From NCBI RefSeq assembly GCF_039932935.1, contig NZ_JBDTPB010000086.1, positions 6,057-70,056 of the forward strand: DNA of 64,000 nt. Direction: 5' to 3'. Made by a program: the position numbers and the translations under genes. This DNA comes from Polaromonas sp. (GTDB lineage Bacteria > Pseudomonadota > Gammaproteobacteria > Burkholderiales > Burkholderiaceae_C). This document shows positions 24,849-58,120 of this stretch, in pieces (within the stretch, counting starts at the first letter, position 1; each line of letters begins with the position of its first letter). The notes under the pieces were generated by a model. That model was not told where the DNA came from. It saw nothing but the letters and a program-made list of their open reading frames with translations, and did not search any database.

Positions 24849-25095
24849 CAGTGCTTGCCCGTCGTCGTTCTACCCGGAGCAGCACCTCTCGGGGAGTCTT
24901 TTGAAAAATTAAAAAGTGGTTGAAAGAAATAGCACGTGCAGATTTGTCGCCGCACAGCGACAAACAATGTAAGGCGCTGGTGTGGTGTGCAACGGTATGT
25001 ATACCGGGTCAACACCCCCAAACCCAAGGCCGTTGAACAGGTGCTTCGTGATAACAACAATTTCCTCATCCATCCATTCTTTTCAAAGGACTCTC

Positions 25096-25590
25096 ATGAA
25101 CAAATTGCTCGCTACCCTTATTGCCACCCTGTTCGTCGGTGTGGCTTCTGCACAGGCACCTGCACCTGCCGAACCCGCCACCGGCGTCGTTCCCGCCAGC
25201 AAAGCGGAAGCCAAGGCTGACAAGGCTGTGACCGGCGCCCTGAAGAGCGAAGCCAAGGTAAATGCCAAGGCCGACGCAAAGGTGGAAAAGGCAGAAGCGA
25301 AAGCCGCTAAAAAGACCCGCAAGGCTGACGCCAAGGCCGACAAGGCCGCCGCCAAGGCAGAAGCCAAGGTTGAAAAGGCTGACCCTGAAGACAAAGCCAA
25401 GGCCACCGCCAAAGCTGAAAAAGCCACCACCAAGGCAGATGCCAAGGCAGCCGGTGTCGCCATCGACGCCAACGCCAAGGTTGACACCGTGAAGGCCAAG
25501 GCTGCTGCCGACAAGGCCAACGCCACCGTCGACACCAACGCCGTGAAAGCCGAAACCAAGGCTGACGTCAAAGCCGCAGGCACCAAGTAA
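25096..25590 (+). CDS. Secreted Ala/Lys-rich low-complexity protein
   Basis: Signal peptide MNKLLATLIATLFVGVASA; AKADAK/AKAEAK repeats; AAGGA RBS. Confidence 0.85.
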   Translation: MNKLLATLIATLFVGVASAQAPAPAEPATGVVPASKAEAKADKAVTGALKSEAKVNAKADAKVEKAEAKAAKKTRKADAKADKAAAKAEAKVEKADPEDKAKATAKAEKATTKADAKAAGVAIDANAKVDTVKAKAAADKANATVDTNAVKAETKADVKAAGTK

Positions 25591-52170: not shown

Positions 52171-52851
52171 CTACCTACAGGATTGAAGCGCCTTGCCCGC
52201 CAGCTGCGGCTTGAGGGCGTCAAGCTTGGTCATCAGCGGCGCATCGACGGCGGGCAGCTTGAGCAACTGGCCGCGTGCCTCGGGGCGTTCCAGCACCACC
52301 TTGGCGGTGCGCACGCCGCGTGTGGCAACTTTGGCCAGCTCGCGTTCGGCGTCGGCCTGGGCGTCGAAATGGCCGAGCGAAAGGCCCGGTCCCAGTGCCG
52401 GGTTGATCAGCGGCTCGAACGACACGCCGAGACCGCGCAGTTCGCCGCGCTTTTTGACCAGCGCTTCTTCATTGGCGTATTTGCCCATGTAGACGATCCA
52501 GCGGCCCGGCTCGACGCTGCTTTCAAGCGACCAGCTGCCGATGGGCAGGCTGCTTTCGAGTCCTGCGCGCAGGGCGGTGGTTTGTTCGGGCGTAAAAAGG
52601 CCGGCCTGCAGGCATTCGGGAGGCGCCGGGGGCGCGGCTGCGGCAGCTGCGGCGGTGGTGCCGAGGCCTTCGAGTTGGCGGGCCTCGGTCATGGTGAGCA
52701 GGAGCATCGCCTCAGGCCGGATTTGCTGTGCCAGGCGCTGGGGTTCGGCCTGAGCGACGGGGGCAAAGCCGTAGTCGGCCAGCAGGCCCTGCGTCCAGGC
52801 GAAGTAGCCGGCGTTGGCCAGCAGCAGCGCCAGCACCAGCAGCCTCAGCAT
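52171..52851 (-). CDS. SPOR domain protein
   Basis: N-terminal TM MLRLLVLALLLANAGYFAW; LSLGHFDAQADAEREL; downstream of birA. Confidence 0.85.
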   Translation of the reverse strand: MLRLLVLALLLANAGYFAWTQGLLADYGFAPVAQAEPQRLAQQIRPEAMLLLTMTEARQLEGLGTTAAAAAAAPPAPPECLQAGLFTPEQTTALRAGLESSLPIGSWSLESSVEPGRWIVYMGKYANEEALVKKRGELRGLGVSFEPLINPALGPGLSLGHFDAQADAERELAKVATRGVRTAKVVLERPEARGQLLKLPAVDAPLMTKLDALKPQLAGKALQSCR

Positions 52852-53732
52852 GGGCGGGCGCCTTCAGGGGGTTGGGCTGCAACGGGCCGCACGCTGACTT
52901 CGGAGCTGGTGATTTCTTTCATGCCAGCCGGAGTATGCACCAGCAGTGCGCCGTTTTCACCCACGCCGTGGGCGGTGCCTTCGATGCCATTTTGGCCGTC
53001 TGACAACTGCACGGCTTGCCCGGCCAGCACGTCGCGCGCGGCAAAACGTGCCTGAAAAGGCGCAAAGCCGAAGCGTTCAAAGGCTTGCACGGCCTGCACC
53101 AACGGCGGCACGATGCGCAGCAAGGTGGCGGGCGCATCCAGTGCCGGCAGCAGCGTCTGCAGGCCACCCGGCGGTATGCCGGGCAAGGGCGTGACGTGCG
53201 GCGCAGCGGGGATGTCTTGCGCGCAGATGTTGATGCCGATGCCGATCACCACATAGCGGACGCCTTCCCAGCTGGCGGTTTCAACAAGAATGCCGGCCAG
53301 TTTGCGCTCGCCTTCGGGGGTGGACAGCCAGAGGTCATTGGGCCATTTCAGGCCGATGCGGGGTTTGCCGGCCTGCCCAGGCACCAGCGGCTCCAGGCTT
53401 TCGGCCACGCTGATGCCCGCCACCAGCGAAAGGCCCGACCAGTCGGCGGGCGCCAGCGGAAGGCCCAGCGAAAAAGTGAGGCTGTCGCCGCGCCGGCTTT
53501 GCCATTGGCGACCCAGGCGGCCGCGGCCGGCGGTTTGCTGCTCGGCCACCAGCAGCAGCGGCTCGGGGCGGGGCTCCACTCCGGGGCTTCCGCGGAAGCG
53601 GCGCATGAGCTCGGTGTTGCTGGAGTCGATCTCGGGCAATACCTCGACCGTAAAGCCCGGCAAGATGGGTGCCACGGCCTCCCAGAGGGCCTCGGCAGGC
53701 CATCGGATGGGGGTTGCGAGGGGCGTGGTCAT
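52845..53732 (-). CDS. birA: Biotin-[acetyl-CoA carboxylase] ligase (no N-terminal HTH)
   Basis: SSNTELM, QTAGRGRLGRQW, LKWPNDL, KLAGILVE and IGIGIN. Confidence 0.95.
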   Translation of the reverse strand: MTTPLATPIRWPAEALWEAVAPILPGFTVEVLPEIDSSNTELMRRFRGSPGVEPRPEPLLLVAEQQTAGRGRLGRQWQSRRGDSLTFSLGLPLAPADWSGLSLVAGISVAESLEPLVPGQAGKPRIGLKWPNDLWLSTPEGERKLAGILVETASWEGVRYVVIGIGINICAQDIPAAPHVTPLPGIPPGGLQTLLPALDAPATLLRIVPPLVQAVQAFERFGFAPFQARFAARDVLAGQAVQLSDGQNGIEGTAHGVGENGALLVHTPAGMKEITSSEVSVRPVAAQPPEGARPC

Positions 53733-53812: not shown

Positions 53813-54508
53813 TCAGTCTTTCTTCTTGTTCTTGGGCTTCTTGTCGGATTTCTTATCGGCTTTTTTGTCAGCCTTCTTTTCCGCTTTTTTCTTGTCAGCC
53901 TTGGCCTCTGCCTTCTTCTCGGTCTTCTTCTCCGTCTTCTTCTCCGATTTCTTCACGGACTTCTTGGCCGACTTCTTCTTGCCCTTGCCCTTCTTGTCGT
54001 CGTCCTTGGGCGCCAGCAGCGTGCCGCGGCAGTTCTTGGCGCCGCACCAGCAGGGGTATTCGGCCAGCAGCTTCTTGGTGTAGGGCGCGTCGATGATCAG
54101 GCCGTAGTCATAAAACAGCTCTTCGCCGGCCTTGATGTTGCGCAACGCCTTGATGAAGACGCGGCCCTCGTTTTCATCGGCCTCGCAGTTGGGCTTGCAG
54201 CTGTGGTTGATCCAGCGCGAAGAATTGCCGCCGTGCTTGGCGTCAATCACGTGCTCTTCGTCAATGTGGAAGTAAAACGTGTGGTTGGGGTCTTTGGGGT
54301 CGTGCGGATGGCGGCGCAGCGCCTCTTTCCAGTTGATGATTTCGCCGATGTATTCGATCAGCGTCTCGCCTTCAGCGAGGTCTTGTACGGCGAAAACACC
54401 CTTGCCGTGCACGCCGGAGCGGCGGGTCTGAATGCGGCGTCCGTCGGCAGCGGGAGCCGCGGGTTTGAGGGGGGATGCGGGAGCTGCGGAGGCCTGGGTT
54501 TTTGACAC
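53813..54508 (-). CDS. SET-domain protein-lysine N-methyltransferase with post-SET and Lys-rich tail
   Basis: GKGVFA, RWINHSCKPNC, GEELFYDY and post-SET CWCGAKNC. Likely GTG start 54508. Confidence 0.92.
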   Translation of the reverse strand: MSKTQASAAPASPLKPAAPAADGRRIQTRRSGVHGKGVFAVQDLAEGETLIEYIGEIINWKEALRRHPHDPKDPNHTFYFHIDEEHVIDAKHGGNSSRWINHSCKPNCEADENEGRVFIKALRNIKAGEELFYDYGLIIDAPYTKKLLAEYPCWCGAKNCRGTLLAPKDDDKKGKGKKKSAKKSVKKSEKKTEKKTEKKAEAKADKKKAEKKADKKADKKSDKKPKNKKKD

Positions 54509-54534
54509 GACGGATTTTTTTGGTATGGTTAATT

Positions 54535-54588
54535 CATGCATGTGCGCGTGCGTGCGCATGTGCGCGCACCCGCGCGCGTACATGCGCG
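54535..54588. other. Alternating purine-pyrimidine tract (Z-DNA-prone)
   Basis: 54535-54569 is 35 nt of unbroken Y-R alternation and 54571-54588 a further 18 nt. Confidence 0.7.
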
Positions 54589-54626
54589 AGAGCCGCTATT
54601 GTAGTGATGCGCCCAAGGAGCCCCCT

Positions 54627-55160
54627 GTGTTGAACCGCCGAAACCTGATGCAGACCACTGCCGCCCTGGCCTTGCCCGCCGTGGCTGGGCTGAGCCTGCC
54701 TGCGTGGGCCAAGGGCGGTGAAAGCCCCCTGCCCAAGGCCGGCAGCACCCTGCCTTTGCCGGCCCTCACCCTGCTGGATGGAAGCACCTGGACGCCCGCA
54801 GCCGTGGCCGAAAAGACGCTTGTGGTGTACTGGTGGGCCAGCTGGTGCCCTTTTTGTGCGGTGCAGTCGCCCCATATAGAAGCCTTGTGGCGGGCTCAGA
54901 AGGCCAGCGGGCTGGAGGTGTTGGCGCTGTCCATCGACAAGCAGCCGGCCGCCGCTGCTACTTATATGAAGACCAAGGGCTACAGCTTCCCCGCCGGGAT
55001 GCTGACCCCCGAAGTCGCGAAATTTTTGCCCAAGCCGGTGGGCCTGCCCGTGGTGGTGGTGCTCAAGGTGGCGGCGAACGGACGTGAAGGCAAAGTCGTA
55101 TTTGCCGAAGGCGGGGAAATGTTCCCCGAAGATGTAGAAGGTTTGAAGAAGTACTTATGA
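54627..55160 (+). CDS. TlpA-like thioredoxin/disulfide reductase with Tat-like signal
   Basis: NRRNLM signal and WWASWCPFC; AAGGAG RBS; ATGA overlap with topB. Confidence 0.87.
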   Translation: MLNRRNLMQTTAALALPAVAGLSLPAWAKGGESPLPKAGSTLPLPALTLLDGSTWTPAAVAEKTLVVYWWASWCPFCAVQSPHIEALWRAQKASGLEVLALSIDKQPAAAATYMKTKGYSFPAGMLTPEVAKFLPKPVGLPVVVVLKVAANGREGKVVFAEGGEMFPEDVEGLKKYL

Positions 55161-58120
55161 AAACTCTGGTGATTGCAGAAAAACCCTCGGTCGCACAAGA
55201 CATTGTGCGGGCGATCACGCCCACGGCGGGCAAGTTTGAAAAGCACGACGAGTACTTTGAGAGCGACGAATGGCTGGTCACCTCGGCTGTCGGCCACCTG
55301 GTCGAGATCCAGGCGCCCGAAGAGTTCGACGTCAAGCGCGGCAAATGGAGCTTTGCCAACCTGCCCGTCATCCCGCCCTACTTTGACTTGAAGCCCATGG
55401 ACAAGACGAAGACGCGGCTGAACGCGATCGTCAAGCTGACCAAACGCAAGGACGTGAGCGCCCTCGTCAACGCCTGCGACGCGGGCCGCGAGGGCGAGCT
55501 GATCTTCAGGCTGATCCAGCAGTACTCGGCCAGCAAACACCCGGTCAAGCGCCTGTGGCTGCAGTCCATGACGCCCGCGGCGATCCGCGAGGGCTTTGAA
55601 AGCCTGCGCACCGAAAAGCAGATGCAGGGCCTGGCCGACGCGGCGCGTTCGCGCTCCGAAGCCGACTGGATGGTCGGCATCAACGGCACCCGCGCCATGA
55701 CGGCCTTCAACTCGCGTGACGGCGGCTTCTTTTTGACGACCGTGGGCCGCGTGCAGACGCCAACCTTGTCTGTGGTGGTGGAACGCGAAGAAAAAATCCG
55801 CAAGTTCGTGAGCCGGGACTATTGGGAAATCCACGCCAGCTTTCTTGCCGAAGCCGGCGAATACCCTGCAAAGTGGTTTGACCCGAAGTGGAAGAAGGCT
55901 GCAGCCAATGCCGACAACACAGAGCCCGATGCCGAGCTGAAGGCCGACCGTGTGTGGTCTGAGCGTGAAGCCATGGCCATTGCTGAAGCCGTGCGCGGCA
56001 AGGCCGCCACGGTGACGGAAGAAAGCAAGCCCACCACGCAGGCCGCCGGCCTGCTGTTTGATTTGACGTCTTTGCAGCGCGAGGCCAACGGCAAGTTCGG
56101 CTTCTCGGCCAAGACCACGCTGTCGATCGCGCAAAGCCTGTACGAGCGCCACAAGGCACTGACCTACCCGCGTACCGATTCGCGCGCGCTGCCGGAAGAC
56201 TACCTGCCGGTGGTCAAGCAGACCTTTGAAATGCTGGCCGCCAGCTCGATGAAGCACCTGGCGCCGCATGCGGCCACGGCCATCAAGGGCAACTACATCA
56301 AGCCCAGCAAGCGCATTTTCGACAACGCCAAGGTGAGCGACCACTTCGCCATCATCCCAACGCTGCAGGCGCCCAGTGGCCTGAGCGAGGCCGAGCAAAA
56401 ACTGTATGACCTGGTGGTGCGCCGTTTCATGGCGGTGTTTTTCCCGAGTGCCGAATACCTGGTGACCACCCGTATATCGCAGTCCGTCGGCCACAGCTTC
56501 AAGACCGAGGGCAAGGTCCTGGTCAAGCCGGGCTGGCTCGCCATTTACGGCAAGGAAGCCGCCGACGAAGTGGCCGACGCCAAGGACGGCGACAAGGGCC
56601 AGAGCCTGGTGCCGGTCACGCCCGGCGAGATGGTGCGTGCCGAAGTGGTCGAGGCCAAGGGGCTGAAGACCCGGCCGCCCGCCCGCTATTCGGAAGCGAC
56701 ATTGCTGGGCGCGATGGAAGGCGCCGGCAAGACGATTGACGACGACGAGCTGCGCGAAGCCATGCAGGAAAAAGGCCTGGGCACCCCGGCCACCCGCGCC
56801 GCCACGATTGAAGGCTTGATCGCCGAGAAATACATGCTGCGCGAAGGCCGCGAGCTGATCCCCACGGCCAAGGCTTTTCAGCTGATGACGCTGCTGCGCG
56901 GGCTGGACGTGCAGGAGCTGTCAAAGGCCGAGCTCACCGGTGAGTGGGAGTTCAAGCTGGCACAAATGGAGCACGGCCAGCTGAGCCGCGAGACCTTCAT
57001 GGCCGAGATCGCCACCATGACCGAGCGCATGGTGGCCAAGGCCAAGGGCTATGACAAGGACACCATTCCTGGCGACTACGCCACGCTGACGGCGCCCTGC
57101 CCCAACTGCGGCGGCGTGATCAAGGAAAACTACCGCCGCTACACCTGCACCGGCAAGAAGGGCGACGACGGTTGCGGTTTCTCCTTTGGCAAGACGCCGG
57201 CCGGCCGCACCTTTGAAGTGGCCGAGGTCGAGCAGTTCCTGCGTGACAAAAAGATCGGGCCGCTGGACGGTTTCCGCTCCAAGGCCGGCTGGCCTTTCAC
57301 CGCCGAGATGGTGATCAAGTTTGACGAAGAGACGAAGAACTACAAGCTTGAATTCGACTTCGGCGACGACAAGAACGGTGAGACCGGCGAGATCGTCGAC
57401 TTCGGCGAACAACAGTCGCTCGGCCCTTGCCCGCGCTGTGCCTCACGCGTGCTTGAGCTCGGCAAAAACTACGTCTGCGAAAAGTCGGTGCCGACGAATG
57501 AGCAGCCCACGCCCAGCTGCACCTTCAAGACCGGCCAGGTGATATTGCAGCAGCCGATTGAACGCGAGCAGATGCACAAGCTGCTGGAAACCGGCAAGAC
57601 CGATTTGCTTGACAAGTTCGTTTCGATGCGCACGCGCCGCCCCTTCAAGGCCATGCTGGCCTGGGACAAAGAGGCCGACAAGGTGAATTTTGAATTCGCG
57701 CCGTCCAAATTCCCGCCGCGCAAACCGGCGGCGGCCAAGACCGGTACGGTGAAAACACCTTTCGGCAAGACGGTGGCGGCCAAGGGCGCACCCGCAGCGA
57801 AAAAGGTAGCGGCCAAAAAAGTCGCCGCCAAGAAAACGCCTGCTGTCAAAACCGCCAAGCCCAAGACCCCCCGTGTCGCCAAGCCGGGCGCAGGCCTCAA
57901 GCCCAGCGACGCGTTGGCTGCGGTGATTGGTGCCGAGCCGGTGGCCCGCACCCAGGTCATCAAAAAGCTCTGGGACTACATCAAGGCCGAAGGCCTGCAG
58001 GACGCGGCCAACAAGCGCGCCATCAATGCCGACGCCAAGCTGCTGCCGGTGTTCGGCAAGCCGCAGGTCACGATGTTTGAGTTGGCCGGGATTGTGGGCA
58101 AGCACCTGACCGCAGAGTAA
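55157..58120 (+). CDS. topB: DNA topoisomerase III with zinc ribbons, Lys/Ala-rich linker and C-terminal SWIB/MDM2 domain
   Basis: IAEKPS Toprim, CDAGREGE, GRVQTPT, catalytic TYPRTDS, GLGTPATRA, and SWIB motif VIKKLWDYIKAEGLQDAANKRAINAD. Confidence 0.96.
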   Translation: MKTLVIAEKPSVAQDIVRAITPTAGKFEKHDEYFESDEWLVTSAVGHLVEIQAPEEFDVKRGKWSFANLPVIPPYFDLKPMDKTKTRLNAIVKLTKRKDVSALVNACDAGREGELIFRLIQQYSASKHPVKRLWLQSMTPAAIREGFESLRTEKQMQGLADAARSRSEADWMVGINGTRAMTAFNSRDGGFFLTTVGRVQTPTLSVVVEREEKIRKFVSRDYWEIHASFLAEAGEYPAKWFDPKWKKAAANADNTEPDAELKADRVWSEREAMAIAEAVRGKAATVTEESKPTTQAAGLLFDLTSLQREANGKFGFSAKTTLSIAQSLYERHKALTYPRTDSRALPEDYLPVVKQTFEMLAASSMKHLAPHAATAIKGNYIKPSKRIFDNAKVSDHFAIIPTLQAPSGLSEAEQKLYDLVVRRFMAVFFPSAEYLVTTRISQSVGHSFKTEGKVLVKPGWLAIYGKEAADEVADAKDGDKGQSLVPVTPGEMVRAEVVEAKGLKTRPPARYSEATLLGAMEGAGKTIDDDELREAMQEKGLGTPATRAATIEGLIAEKYMLREGRELIPTAKAFQLMTLLRGLDVQELSKAELTGEWEFKLAQMEHGQLSRETFMAEIATMTERMVAKAKGYDKDTIPGDYATLTAPCPNCGGVIKENYRRYTCTGKKGDDGCGFSFGKTPAGRTFEVAEVEQFLRDKKIGPLDGFRSKAGWPFTAEMVIKFDEETKNYKLEFDFGDDKNGETGEIVDFGEQQSLGPCPRCASRVLELGKNYVCEKSVPTNEQPTPSCTFKTGQVILQQPIEREQMHKLLETGKTDLLDKFVSMRTRRPFKAMLAWDKEADKVNFEFAPSKFPPRKPAAAKTGTVKTPFGKTVAAKGAPAAKKVAAKKVAAKKTPAVKTAKPKTPRVAKPGAGLKPSDALAAVIGAEPVARTQVIKKLWDYIKAEGLQDAANKRAINADAKLLPVFGKPQVTMFELAGIVGKHLTAE

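Follow-up and report, generated by a model that had tools for sequence, protein, structure and literature searches.

A Z-DNA-prone control region shared by a SET-domain methyltransferase operon and a topoisomerase III gene in Comamonadaceae and a sister lineage

In Chlamydiae, a SET protein (NUE/cpnSET), a topoisomerase I fused to a SWIB domain (TopA-SWIB, CT643) and a small SWIB protein (CT460/Wcw_0377) have been proposed to form a chromatin-remodelling set (PMC6426960; Aravind et al. 2011 as cited there). The SWIB protein of Waddlia binds genome-wide in ChIP-seq, while NUE is a secreted effector for which there are conflicting reports on the methylation of Hc1 (PMC6426960). An earlier note on the DNA analysed here placed the chlamydial SET gene near the TopA-SWIB gene, but the locus tags lie apart (CT737 versus CT643; Wcw_0084 versus Wcw_1713; PMC6426960). 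In Methanosarcina mazei, Go1-SET methylates the chromatin protein MC1-alpha (Manzur & Zhou 2005, as summarised in PMC3980110). In Streptomyces TopA, the Lys-repeat C-terminal domain makes the enzyme-DNA complex more stable and the enzyme highly processive (PMC5714199).

A fusion of topoisomerase III with SWIB is itself already known, as the curated NCBIfam family NF011313 (PRK14724), named 'DNA topoisomerase III'. The promoters of topoisomerase genes are known to be sensitive to supercoiling. Alternating (CG)n and (TG)n tracts reportedly undergo a supercoiling-driven B-Z transition and were used as torsional probes in Escherichia coli plasmids, in work attributed to Rahmouni and Wells (1989) and to Peck and Wang (1985).

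How does the Polaromonas locus compare with these systems? In the window, the 64-kb stretch of DNA that was analysed, a SET open reading frame (53813-54583, minus strand) lies opposite a TlpA-like frame ending at 55160 and topB (55157-58120, plus strand). The SET gene itself is placed at 53813-54508, with a likely GTG start at 54508 that is backed by homology with other loci; the longer, ATG-initiated frame to 54583 is merely read-through of an alternating purine-pyrimidine tract. The tlpA gene (54627-55160, plus strand) starts at a GTG just downstream of AAGGAG. With these two starts, the gap runs from 54509 to 54626 and reproduces exactly the 118 bp of the earlier note. The tlpA product is a TlpA/ResA-like periplasmic thiol-disulfide oxidoreductase (Pfam Redoxin/AhpC-TSA/Thioredoxin) with an RRNLM signal and a WCPFC motif, and its gene overlaps topB by 4 bp (ATGA). 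Only a few Polaromonas and Ramlibacter loci have tlpA, as a lineage-specific insertion that separates topB from the control region.

TopB (987 aa) is a DNA topoisomerase III that belongs to NF011313/PRK14724, scoring 2042 bits over 1-985 against a 988-position model with a cutoff of 1088. Pfam detects Toprim, Topoisom_bac (1e-108), two Toprim_Crpt zinc-ribbon repeats and a SWIB/MDM2 domain (PF02201, 1.9e-23; residues 914-984, 57896-58108), and the translation contains the active-site motif LTYPRTDS. The zinc ribbons, Lys-rich linker and SWIB domain thus agree with the earlier description; the Ala/Lys/Pro-rich linker (residues 855-912, 57719-57892) is found to be 58 aa long, with 15 Lys, and includes PAAKKVAAKKVAAKK. 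Across homologues its composition is kept, but not its sequence or its length (42-83 aa). The closest solved chains to the SWIB domain are yeast UAF30 (7z0o_G, 9e-11) and Arabidopsis SWIB 1v31. TopBs that lack SWIB end in an AKK tail of 17-23 aa, and the same AKK repeats are found N-terminally in those SWIB proteins of the family that stand alone. The Comamonadaceae TopB looks like an enzyme to which an 'AKK-repeat + SWIB' nucleoid protein has been fused. For the linker, the most economical role would be that of the Streptomyces TopA tail, namely the stability and processivity of the enzyme-DNA complex.

The best matches of the SET protein (Pfam SET 9e-26) among PDB chains are the SET domains of MLL1/KMT2 (E 9e-26). 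NHSC, ELFYDY and the post-SET CxCGxxxCRG are aligned, and the catalytic motifs are all present when invariant residues are compared. The protein is probably a cytoplasmic lysine methyltransferase of the MLL-like type, with its catalytic function intact. Its Lys-rich C-terminal tail (53816-54016, 33 K in 67 aa) is shared by only about 19 of 53 Comamonadaceae loci, being long in Polaromonas, Variovorax, Curvibacter and Pseudacidovorax and absent from Rhodoferax, Hydrogenophaga, Ramlibacter and Comamonas. Basic H1-like tails are found repeatedly on bacterial SET proteins.

Downstream of SET in all related loci is birA (52845-53732, minus strand; Pfam BPL_LplA_LipB and BPL_C). It encodes a monofunctional biotin-protein ligase without the N-terminal HTH, and its matches to the bifunctional NCBIfam models begin at about profile position 58. 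The two genes are co-directional, often with a gap of 3-20 bp, and they stay adjacent where topB is not linked (locus L083); birA is the tightest partner of SET. Neither a terminator nor a promoter was found on the minus strand at the SET-birA junction of the window. The stop of birA is overlapped by the gene for a SPOR-domain-like protein (52171-52851, minus strand; weak Pfam SPOR match, E 0.001), which is syntenic in most related loci and is the terminal gene of the unit. SET, birA and the SPOR-domain gene appear to form one transcription unit. Homologues of both SET and topB are present in metatranscriptome contigs.

SET is divergent from topB in 53 of the 53 Comamonadaceae TopB-SWIB loci that have upstream flank, and in 20 of 20 metagenomic relatives with a TopB at least 69% identical. 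The same arrangement is found in the sister lineage (Caldimonas-type loci), whose TopB has no SWIB domain, so that by this comparison the linkage is older than the SWIB fusion. Both the SET tail and SWIB are dispensable for it. The interpretation of the earlier note is supported in part: the pairing is invariant in Comamonadaceae and the sister lineage, but the sister TopB does without SWIB, and SET was found upstream of topB in none of 60 more distant TopB orthologues, which sit after dprA/smg instead. A second arrangement, topB-panB-SET, occurs in Orrella-type Alcaligenaceae, the SET proteins of which form a separate clade. The module is vertically inherited and chromosomal in Comamonadaceae and a sister Burkholderiales lineage.

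The region shared by the two transcription units, about 120 bp long, contains two predicted sigma70-type -10 boxes that face each other across the tract. The predicted tlpA-topB promoter (54502-54529, plus strand) combines a -35 TTGACA, a 16-nt spacer and an extended -10 TGgTATGGT; it has 10 of 12 matches, no other sigma70-like site was found within 54400-54750, and none arose in shuffled sequences. The extended -10 (TGnTAnnnT) is conserved at the same position in related loci. On the other strand, the predicted -10 box of the SET-birA promoter (TACAAT, 54598-54603) lies beside the tract, where ATTGTA/AGTATA is conserved in all loci. At one related locus (L009) the SET strand carries a predicted ATGACT-16-TACAAT (9 of 12 matches, 0 in shuffles). 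Both predicted sites are presumably active promoters. The predicted -35 of each overlaps the start codon of the opposite gene; therefore, both 5' UTRs should cross the tract and the promoters should interfere.

The tract (54535-54588) consists of alternating runs of 35 bp and 18 bp with a single C between them, and is the longest alternating purine-pyrimidine run in the window, where the runner-up has 19 bp. An equivalent tract of 16-54 bp is present in 58 of 61 loci with SET divergent from topB. Runs of at least 16 bp number 74 within the SET-topB region against 15 across the remaining ~1.36 Mb, an enrichment of about 500-fold. The ratio of transitions to transversions is 4.9 in the tract and 0.84 in its flanks; judged by these substitutions, the tract retains its alternation, not its sequence, and evolves mainly by transitions. 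In two lineages (L059 and L109) the tract has been lost while both -10 boxes are kept. The papers searched described no case in which such a tract occurs naturally between facing topoisomerase-gene promoters and is conserved phylogenetically.

What might such a region do? The preferred explanation, held tentatively and with less than even confidence, is that a torsion-sensitive (B-Z) shared control region couples topB to the SET operon, and that SET acts on DNA-bound Lys-rich proteins. The tract would be a torsion-responsive element undergoing a B-Z transition under negative supercoiling, and would set the balance between transcription of topB and of the SET operon. A point against this reading is that, in the twin-domain model, active facing promoters would push positive, not negative, supercoils into the intervening tract, so that any regulation could run in either direction. 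Another is that in Polaromonas tlpA has come to lie between the region and topB. In many lineages the H1-like basic tail would tether SET to DNA, where the most likely substrates would be DNA-bound Lys-rich proteins; the leading candidates are the TopB AKK linker and the stand-alone AKK-SWIB proteins. The TopB linker is put forward as a candidate only, because the SET tail is not a conserved feature, the linkage does without SWIB, and SET homologues occur elsewhere in plasmids and unrelated contexts. The SET tail itself, which the earlier note also proposed as a target, would likewise be a hypothetical substrate.

Is a functional link between SET and TopB needed at all? SET may simply have landed, or been fixed, between topB and birA in the ancestor of Comamonadaceae and the sister lineage. 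It would then act together with the other products of its operon or on targets unrelated to TopB, for example translation factors or ribosomal proteins, and the tract would control topB and/or the birA operon regardless of what SET does. Such inherited synteny is somewhat less probable than the preferred explanation. The evidence for pairing comes essentially from one clade and one small second clade, so shared ancestry explains much of it. The birA and SPOR genes are as syntenic as SET, SET and birA stay together without topB in L083, and the distant TopB orthologues are SET-less. The Bordetella bronchiseptica SET is not linked to topB, related SET genes lie in plasmids, an ICE and unrelated loci, and a few lineages without SET also have purine-pyrimidine tracts upstream of topB (30 bp in L163, 22 bp in L137 and 21 bp in L162). 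Against this, more than 75 loci show no exception, despite a rearranged far side of topB and the insertion of tlpA, and the predicted promoters are interlocked with the opposite start codons. Further points against it are the separate topB-panB-SET layout and the DNA-tethering tails found alike on SET, TopB and SWIB proteins.

Alternatively, the tract might act in RNA, as a highly stable hairpin at the 5' end of both mRNAs that affects stability or translation, and through excludon-like pairing of the fully complementary 5' UTRs that gives reciprocal control. The hairpins of the window are strong (MFE -46 kcal/mol in the tlpA/topB sense and -36 kcal/mol in the SET sense, with similar values elsewhere), both predicted transcription start sites lie just outside the tract, and a moderate bias on the topB-sense strand (T 326 versus A 187 within tracts) favours G-U pairs in the topB RNA. 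Any alternating tract gives both RNAs strong hairpins of a generic kind (mean MFE -29 and -25 kcal/mol), which leaves room for a role in RNA. However, folding of the real tracts is no stronger than that of shuffles preserving their composition and purine-pyrimidine pattern (mean z -0.5 and -0.3, with only 4% below -2); therefore, it is the alternation that is kept, not a particular hairpin. Neither a hairpin nor an antisense overlap needs the strict alternation that the substitution ratios show to be preserved, and an Rfam search gave no family above threshold, the sole weak matches being repeat-rich miRNA precursors. On balance, a role in RNA is unlikely.

It is very improbable that SET, like LegAS4/RomA, BtSET or NUE, is an effector directed at a host, with a tail for nuclear or nucleolar targeting against eukaryotic hosts or grazers and an irrelevant topB neighbour. 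In favour of this, its closest NCBIfam model is the LegAS4/AnkI effector (E 5e-12), most characterised bacterial SET proteins are effectors, a B. bronchiseptica homologue is cited as LegAS4-like (PMC3980110), and the window sequence is present in root and rhizosphere metagenomes. Against it, the match covers the SET domain only, at 45 bits against a cutoff of 550, there are no ankyrin repeats, the tail is absent from most genera, and no secretion-system genes were seen among the neighbours examined. In addition, the gene apparently shares an operon with housekeeping birA and is fixed in the chromosome throughout a family whose members are mostly free-living.

The coupling of topB to the SET operon by a torsion-sensitive region remains the preferred, tentative reading. 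The window TopB matches NF011313 end to end and as a protein does not differ from that family, the annotation of which is silent on the role of SWIB, the AKK linker, the SET neighbour and the promoter tract. The endogenous chromatin-like module of the earlier note gains from the recurrent SET-topB pairing, the conserved control region, the second arrangement in Orrella-type Alcaligenaceae, the intact SET motifs and the recurrent H1-like SET tails, but the concept of a SET, SWIB and topoisomerase 'chromatin' set was already published for Chlamydiae (Aravind 2011 as cited in PMC6426960). What is new is the invariant SET-topB linkage, the apparent SET-birA-SPOR operon and the shared control region with its Z-DNA-prone tract.

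Three components are common to Chlamydiae and Comamonadaceae: a SET protein, a type IA topoisomerase with a SWIB fusion, and a SWIB protein that stands alone. In Chlamydiae, however, the fusion partner is topoisomerase I (the window TopB scores 195 bits against the TopA/SWI fusion model NF004966, cutoff 868), and the SET and topoisomerase locus tags are far apart (PMC6426960), whereas here the two genes are paired across a shared promoter region in a free-living host. Go1-SET, a small prokaryotic SET protein acting on an endogenous DNA-binding protein, offers the functional model proposed here, where the substrate is a candidate only; it differs in being archaeal, in its substrate family and in having no topoisomerase linkage. 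LegAS4/RomA of Legionella and BtSET of Burkholderia thailandensis have a homologous catalytic domain and basic regions for targeting, from which the window SET is set apart by its low score, the lack of ankyrin repeats, its housekeeping context and its vertical inheritance. Streptomyces TopA is likewise a type IA topoisomerase with a low-complexity Lys/Ala-rich tail, but it is a topoisomerase I from another phylum, whereas here topoisomerase III has SWIB after the tail and a linked methyltransferase gene. Finally, the B-Z probe tracts of E. coli belong to the same sequence class, with CG- and TG/CA-rich alternation. They were engineered, whereas the tracts described here, 16-54 bp long and located at the promoters of a topology enzyme, are natural and conserved, and their formation of Z-DNA is predicted from sequence.

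The gene for a SET-domain protein lies on the minus strand of the window and topB on the plus strand (55157-58120; Pfam and NCBIfam). The open reading frame called mechanically for SET spans 53813-54583 (minus strand; Pfam and ORF reading), and its first 25 codons (54508-54583, MYARGCAHMRTHAHMH...) simply translate an alternating purine-pyrimidine tract together with the topB promoter. SET probably starts at the GTG at 54508, and many database homologues of ~253 amino acids probably share the mis-called N-terminus. A TlpA/ResA-like thioredoxin-fold periplasmic thiol-disulfide oxidoreductase (54627-55160, plus strand), with a twin-Arg-like signal and a WCPFC motif, is encoded immediately before topB, which it overlaps by 4 bp (ATGA). 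With SET starting at GTG 54508 and tlpA at GTG 54627, the divergent arrangement and its 118-bp spacer were described accurately in an earlier note on this DNA. The tlpA-like insertion between the control region and topB is found only in a few Polaromonas and Ramlibacter-like loci; in Polaromonas it lies downstream of the control region and leaves it undisturbed.

The neighbour of topB is already named in databases as a SET domain-containing protein-lysine N-methyltransferase. The window protein matches PF00856 over its full length (E 9.1e-26; 90.8 bits against a cutoff of 22.4; profile positions 1-105 of 105), and the closest solved structures are MLL-type SET domains. Alignment with the SET/post-SET region of MLL1 covers the segments RWINHSCKPNC, GEELFYDYG, and CWCGAKNCRG. 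As read from these alignments, all catalytic hallmarks are present (NHSC, ELFYDY, and post-SET CxCx4C): the AdoMet-binding NHxC, the catalytic tyrosine in ELxYDY, and the post-SET cysteine cluster, and the same catalytic residues are invariant across 37 diverse homologues. The final 67 residues of the window protein contain 33 lysines. A long tail of this kind is present in ~19 of 53 loci, while in the others the protein ends APKR; basic tails occur on about one fifth of diverse SET representatives, in one case at the N-terminus (the distant homologue P0155, which has a sub-threshold match to HC2).

Window TopB has, by its sequence, the complete make-up of a type IA topoisomerase III. Pfam assigns a Toprim domain, the Topoisom_bac core, two copies of the Toprim_Crpt zinc-ribbon repeat and, beyond a linker, SWIB, and the translation contains LTYPRTDS, the active-site tyrosine motif of type IA enzymes. 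The fusion of TopB to SWIB is already curated as an NCBIfam equivalog (NF011313/PRK14724), which the window protein matches with 2042.5 bits against a cutoff of 1088 (residues 1-985 on profile positions 2-988). The SWIB/MDM2 domain itself is clear (PF02201, E 1.9e-23, positions 3-74 of 74), with UAF30, an Arabidopsis SWIB protein, and BAF60b as relatives in the PDB.

Is the linker between the zinc ribbons and SWIB H1-like, as the earlier note described it? It is rich in Ala, Lys, and Pro, with 15 lysines in 58 amino acids (PAAKKVAAKKVAAKK included); neither SET nor TopB of the window matches HC2 (PF07382) at E<=0.01. The resemblance is compositional, and the linker may act as an H1-type tail without being a member of the HC2 family. 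Across loci, TopB linkers vary from 42 to 83 amino acids with 8-17 lysines, and it is the richness in Ala/Lys/Lys (AKK) repeats that is kept and not the sequence. Stand-alone SWIB proteins of Comamonadaceae also carry 50-100 amino acids of N-terminal AKK/PAKK repeats followed by SWIB (loci L068, L071-L073, L076, L077, and L080; ~9.6-10.2 kb), and thus the C-terminus of TopB resembles a fused AKK-SWIB gene. Stand-alone SWIB proteins from Elusimicrobia/Victivallales (L064, L067, L078) are without AKK repeats. The only other Lys-rich protein in the window (24982-25590, plus strand) has a signal peptide followed by repeats rich in Ala, Lys, Asp, and Glu (AKADAKVEKAEAKAAKK...) and coincides with a local dip in GC (0.57). 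The product looks like a repeat protein that is secreted or resides in the periplasm, and the signal peptide rules it out as a nucleoid candidate.

How widely are SET and topB paired? The window is DNA of a Polaromonas (Comamonadaceae), the genus to which all the nearest relatives of both window proteins belong, and the exact window sequence is present in root and rhizosphere metagenomes. A scan with the TopB C-terminus against one genome per species gave 63 TopB-SWIB loci, all of them Comamonadaceae-like, from genera that include Polaromonas, Rhodoferax, Curvibacter, Ramlibacter, Variovorax, Xylophilus, Hydrogenophaga, Limnohabitans, Pseudacidovorax, Comamonas, and Melaminivora. SET is directly upstream and divergent in all 53 loci that have upstream sequence; the remaining 10 contigs end at topB. 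A divergent pair is also found in Caldimonas thermodepolymerans and three further lineages (SET ~55-65% identical), where TopB has 854-865 amino acids, lacks SWIB, and ends in an AKK tail of 17-23 amino acids, and where SET (174-178 amino acids) has no basic tail. When metagenomes were scanned with the N-terminal part of TopB, SET and birA stood upstream in 20 of 20 loci that share 69-95% identity with the window in the TopB core, and in 0 of 60 loci with 51-65% identity; those of the latter viewed by eye show dprA/smg and then topB in one orientation. The boundary is sharp: the pairing is a fixed trait of one clade, older than the SWIB fusion and not common to the Burkholderiales.

The association of SET with birA (52845-53732, minus strand), which lies 3' of SET and is itself followed by a SPOR-like gene (52171-52851, minus strand), is by operon logic at least as strong as that with topB. 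In related loci the gap between SET and birA is often 3-20 bp or the genes overlap, and at the window junction no terminator or promoter was found on the coding strand; SET and birA form an apparent operon. In one clade birA is still 3' of SET and a transporter replaces topB on the other side. SET genes can also occur apart from topB: related genes are found in an ICE-like context, between ybeD and lipB/lipA (L091 6001-6675 and neighbours), and at another unrelated locus. BirA and LipB belong to one BPL/LplA/LipB superfamily of lysine-modifying enzymes; the presence of SET beside birA in one lineage and within ybeD-lipB-lipA in another comprises two contexts only, and may be a coincidence.

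SET relatives are also present on 64 plasmid records of Paraburkholderia, Burkholderia, and Caballeronia. The plasmid and megaplasmid forms (matches H1-H40, e.g., L095, L096, and L097) are minimal proteins of ~147 amino acids, ~50% identical, with up to six copies per record. The three contexts inspected contain integrases, toxin-antitoxin genes, or hypothetical genes, with an integrase adjoining SET in two of the three. The TopB homologues on plasmids, at most 52% identical, are paralogues and were set aside as uninformative about the context of the chromosomal orthologue. In Orrella sp. and a related contig, the order smg-gluQRS-topB-panB-SET is found on one strand (topB-panB-SET at 375-4377 in L158 and 3489-7525 in L180/L181). 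This TopB has a long Lys/Thr/Ala tail without SWIB, the SET protein has a short Lys tail, and a neighbour-joining tree places these SET proteins in a separate Alcaligenaceae clade. Orrella-type loci are a second case in which SET lies near topB, with a different layout; a Bordetella bronchiseptica SET of the same clade is unlinked to topB. Pure synteny, with a SET function unrelated to TopB, would accommodate the unlinked genes and the constancy of birA, and has to be set against the 53 of 53 paired loci and the second proximity in Alcaligenaceae. We regard it as somewhat unlikely, and as the strongest of the alternatives to a control region shared by topB and the SET operon.

A motif TGnTAnnnT, an extended -10 element directed toward topB, is present to the left of the alternating tract in all loci, and ATTGTA/AGTATA (TACAAT/TATACT on the SET strand) to the right in all loci. 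In the window the call toward topB is TTGACA-16-TATGGT with an upstream TG (10 of 12 matches, none in shuffles), and its predicted -35 overlaps the SET start codon. On the SET strand of locus L009, ATGACT-16-TACAAT was called, with the -35 within the first codons of topB. The two predicted promoters face each other, 41-90 bp apart, so that each predicted transcript would begin at a border of the tract and run through it. Antisense-overlapping (excludon-like) transcripts are thus predicted from consensus promoters, and the conserved -10 motifs are probably active. A search turned up no RNA run from this organism; metatranscriptome contigs of relatives span both coding regions and leave the divergent intergenic region uncovered.

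The tract (54535-54588) consists of 35 bp and 18 bp of strict alternation with one C between, and is the longest alternating run in the 64 kb, where the runner-up has 19 bp. Of 61 paired loci, 58 have an equivalent tract of at least 16 bp, as do most of the 20 metagenomic loci (equivalent spacers: L001-L065, L085-L094, and L098-L116). In the 1.38 Mb of fetched DNA, 74 alternating runs of at least 16 bp fall within the SET-topB spacer and 15 elsewhere, two of the latter being the same spacer on truncated contigs; the enrichment is ~500-fold. In L059 and L109, one of them low in GC, ordinary sequence of similar length replaces the tract and both -10 boxes are kept. Some loci without SET (L163, L137, and L162), in which topB follows smg/dprA, have alternating tracts of 21-30 bp just ahead of the topB promoter region, ~70-130 bp from the topB start, which links the tract to topB rather than to SET; that of L163 is a perfect palindrome.

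What is maintained in the tract? Its primary sequence is not conserved and its pattern is. Between relatives, transitions outnumber transversions by 4.9:1 in the tract, compared with 0.84:1 in the flanking spacer, with tract and flanks about equally diverged overall; only one sequence of each comparison served to define the tract, since definition in both would be circular. Action at the RNA level would be in keeping with the strong folding of the tracts as RNA in either sense. This folding is no better than that of shuffles in which only composition and the order of purines and pyrimidines are kept (mean z -0.5 and -0.3), so a specific conserved hairpin was rejected, and Rfam gave only sub-threshold matches of the control region to repeat-rich miRNA precursors, rejected as chance. 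An RNA-level role is unlikely, more so than pure synteny. The transition bias and the equality with shuffles show that alternation itself is maintained; Z-DNA requires it by definition, whereas a hairpin does not. With 35 + 18 bp, the window has a Z-DNA-prone sequence, taken as unbroken alternation over at least 12 bp with mainly CG and TG/CA steps, and these steps also dominate the pooled tracts (G 724, C 570, T 326, A 187).

The reading that we tentatively prefer, while rating it at somewhat less than an even chance, is that of a torsion-sensitive control region shared by topB and the SET operon. The tract would undergo a B-Z transition, or be read otherwise as an alternating structure, and would couple expression of topB and the SET operon to superhelical stress, while SET would act on DNA-bound Lys-rich proteins. 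The TopB linker is only a candidate substrate. A host-directed effector role for SET is very improbable, given that the model for the Dot/Icm effector AnkI/LegAS4 (NF043024) is matched only in its SET part, with 45 bits against a cutoff of 550. The shared control region could be extended to a self-contained supercoil-sensing circuit for nucleoid modification. In such a circuit, a B-Z switch between the facing promoters would select topoisomerase III or the SET operon, and SET, tethered to DNA by its basic tail where present, would methylate TopB and stand-alone AKK-SWIB proteins on their AKK repeats and so tune their DNA binding. Lys-rich peptides stabilise Z-DNA, and Lys-rich tails might themselves bind and stabilise the Z-prone tract, which would close a feedback loop. 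We consider this full circuit improbable.

The finding is real, and its regulatory anatomy is of more interest than the part on which the earlier note had laid stress. To our knowledge, nearly all of the bacterial SET enzymes studied are host-directed effectors, leaving next to no known endogenous roles. Free-living Comamonadaceae (Variovorax, Polaromonas, Hydrogenophaga) offer a genetically tractable endogenous case, in which the SET gene comes firmly tied to a topoisomerase with features of a nucleoid protein. Independently of SET, bacterial gene control by Z-DNA, or at least by alternation, may have a rare natural candidate in this conserved tract, and the promoter of an enzyme of DNA topology is a sensible site for a torsional sensor.

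In Streptomyces, Lys-repeat tails of TopA serve processivity and the stability of the complex with DNA (PMC5714199), and by analogy this role is the default explanation of the TopB linker. The fusion of SWIB to topoisomerase III is independent of the chlamydial topoisomerase I/SWI fusion, whose model (NF004966) window TopB matches with 195 bits against a cutoff of 868. The chromatin-like reading of the SET/topB pair is a reasonable hypothesis and gains some comparative support here; its general form, in which a bacterial SET protein, SWIB, and a SWIB-fused topoisomerase act together, had already been voiced for Chlamydiae (PMC6426960). PMC6426960 and PMC3980110 credit the co-occurrence of SET and SWIB to Aravind et al. 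2011; among the papers searched, none dealt with the TopB-SWIB/SET pair in Burkholderiales. The chlamydial SET protein NUE is secreted, and reports on methylation of Hc1 conflict (PMC6426960). The proximity of SET to the topoisomerase-SWIB gene that had been assumed for Chlamydia is contradicted by the locus tags (PMC6426960): in Chlamydiae the two genes lie apart, whereas in the window they are divergent neighbours.
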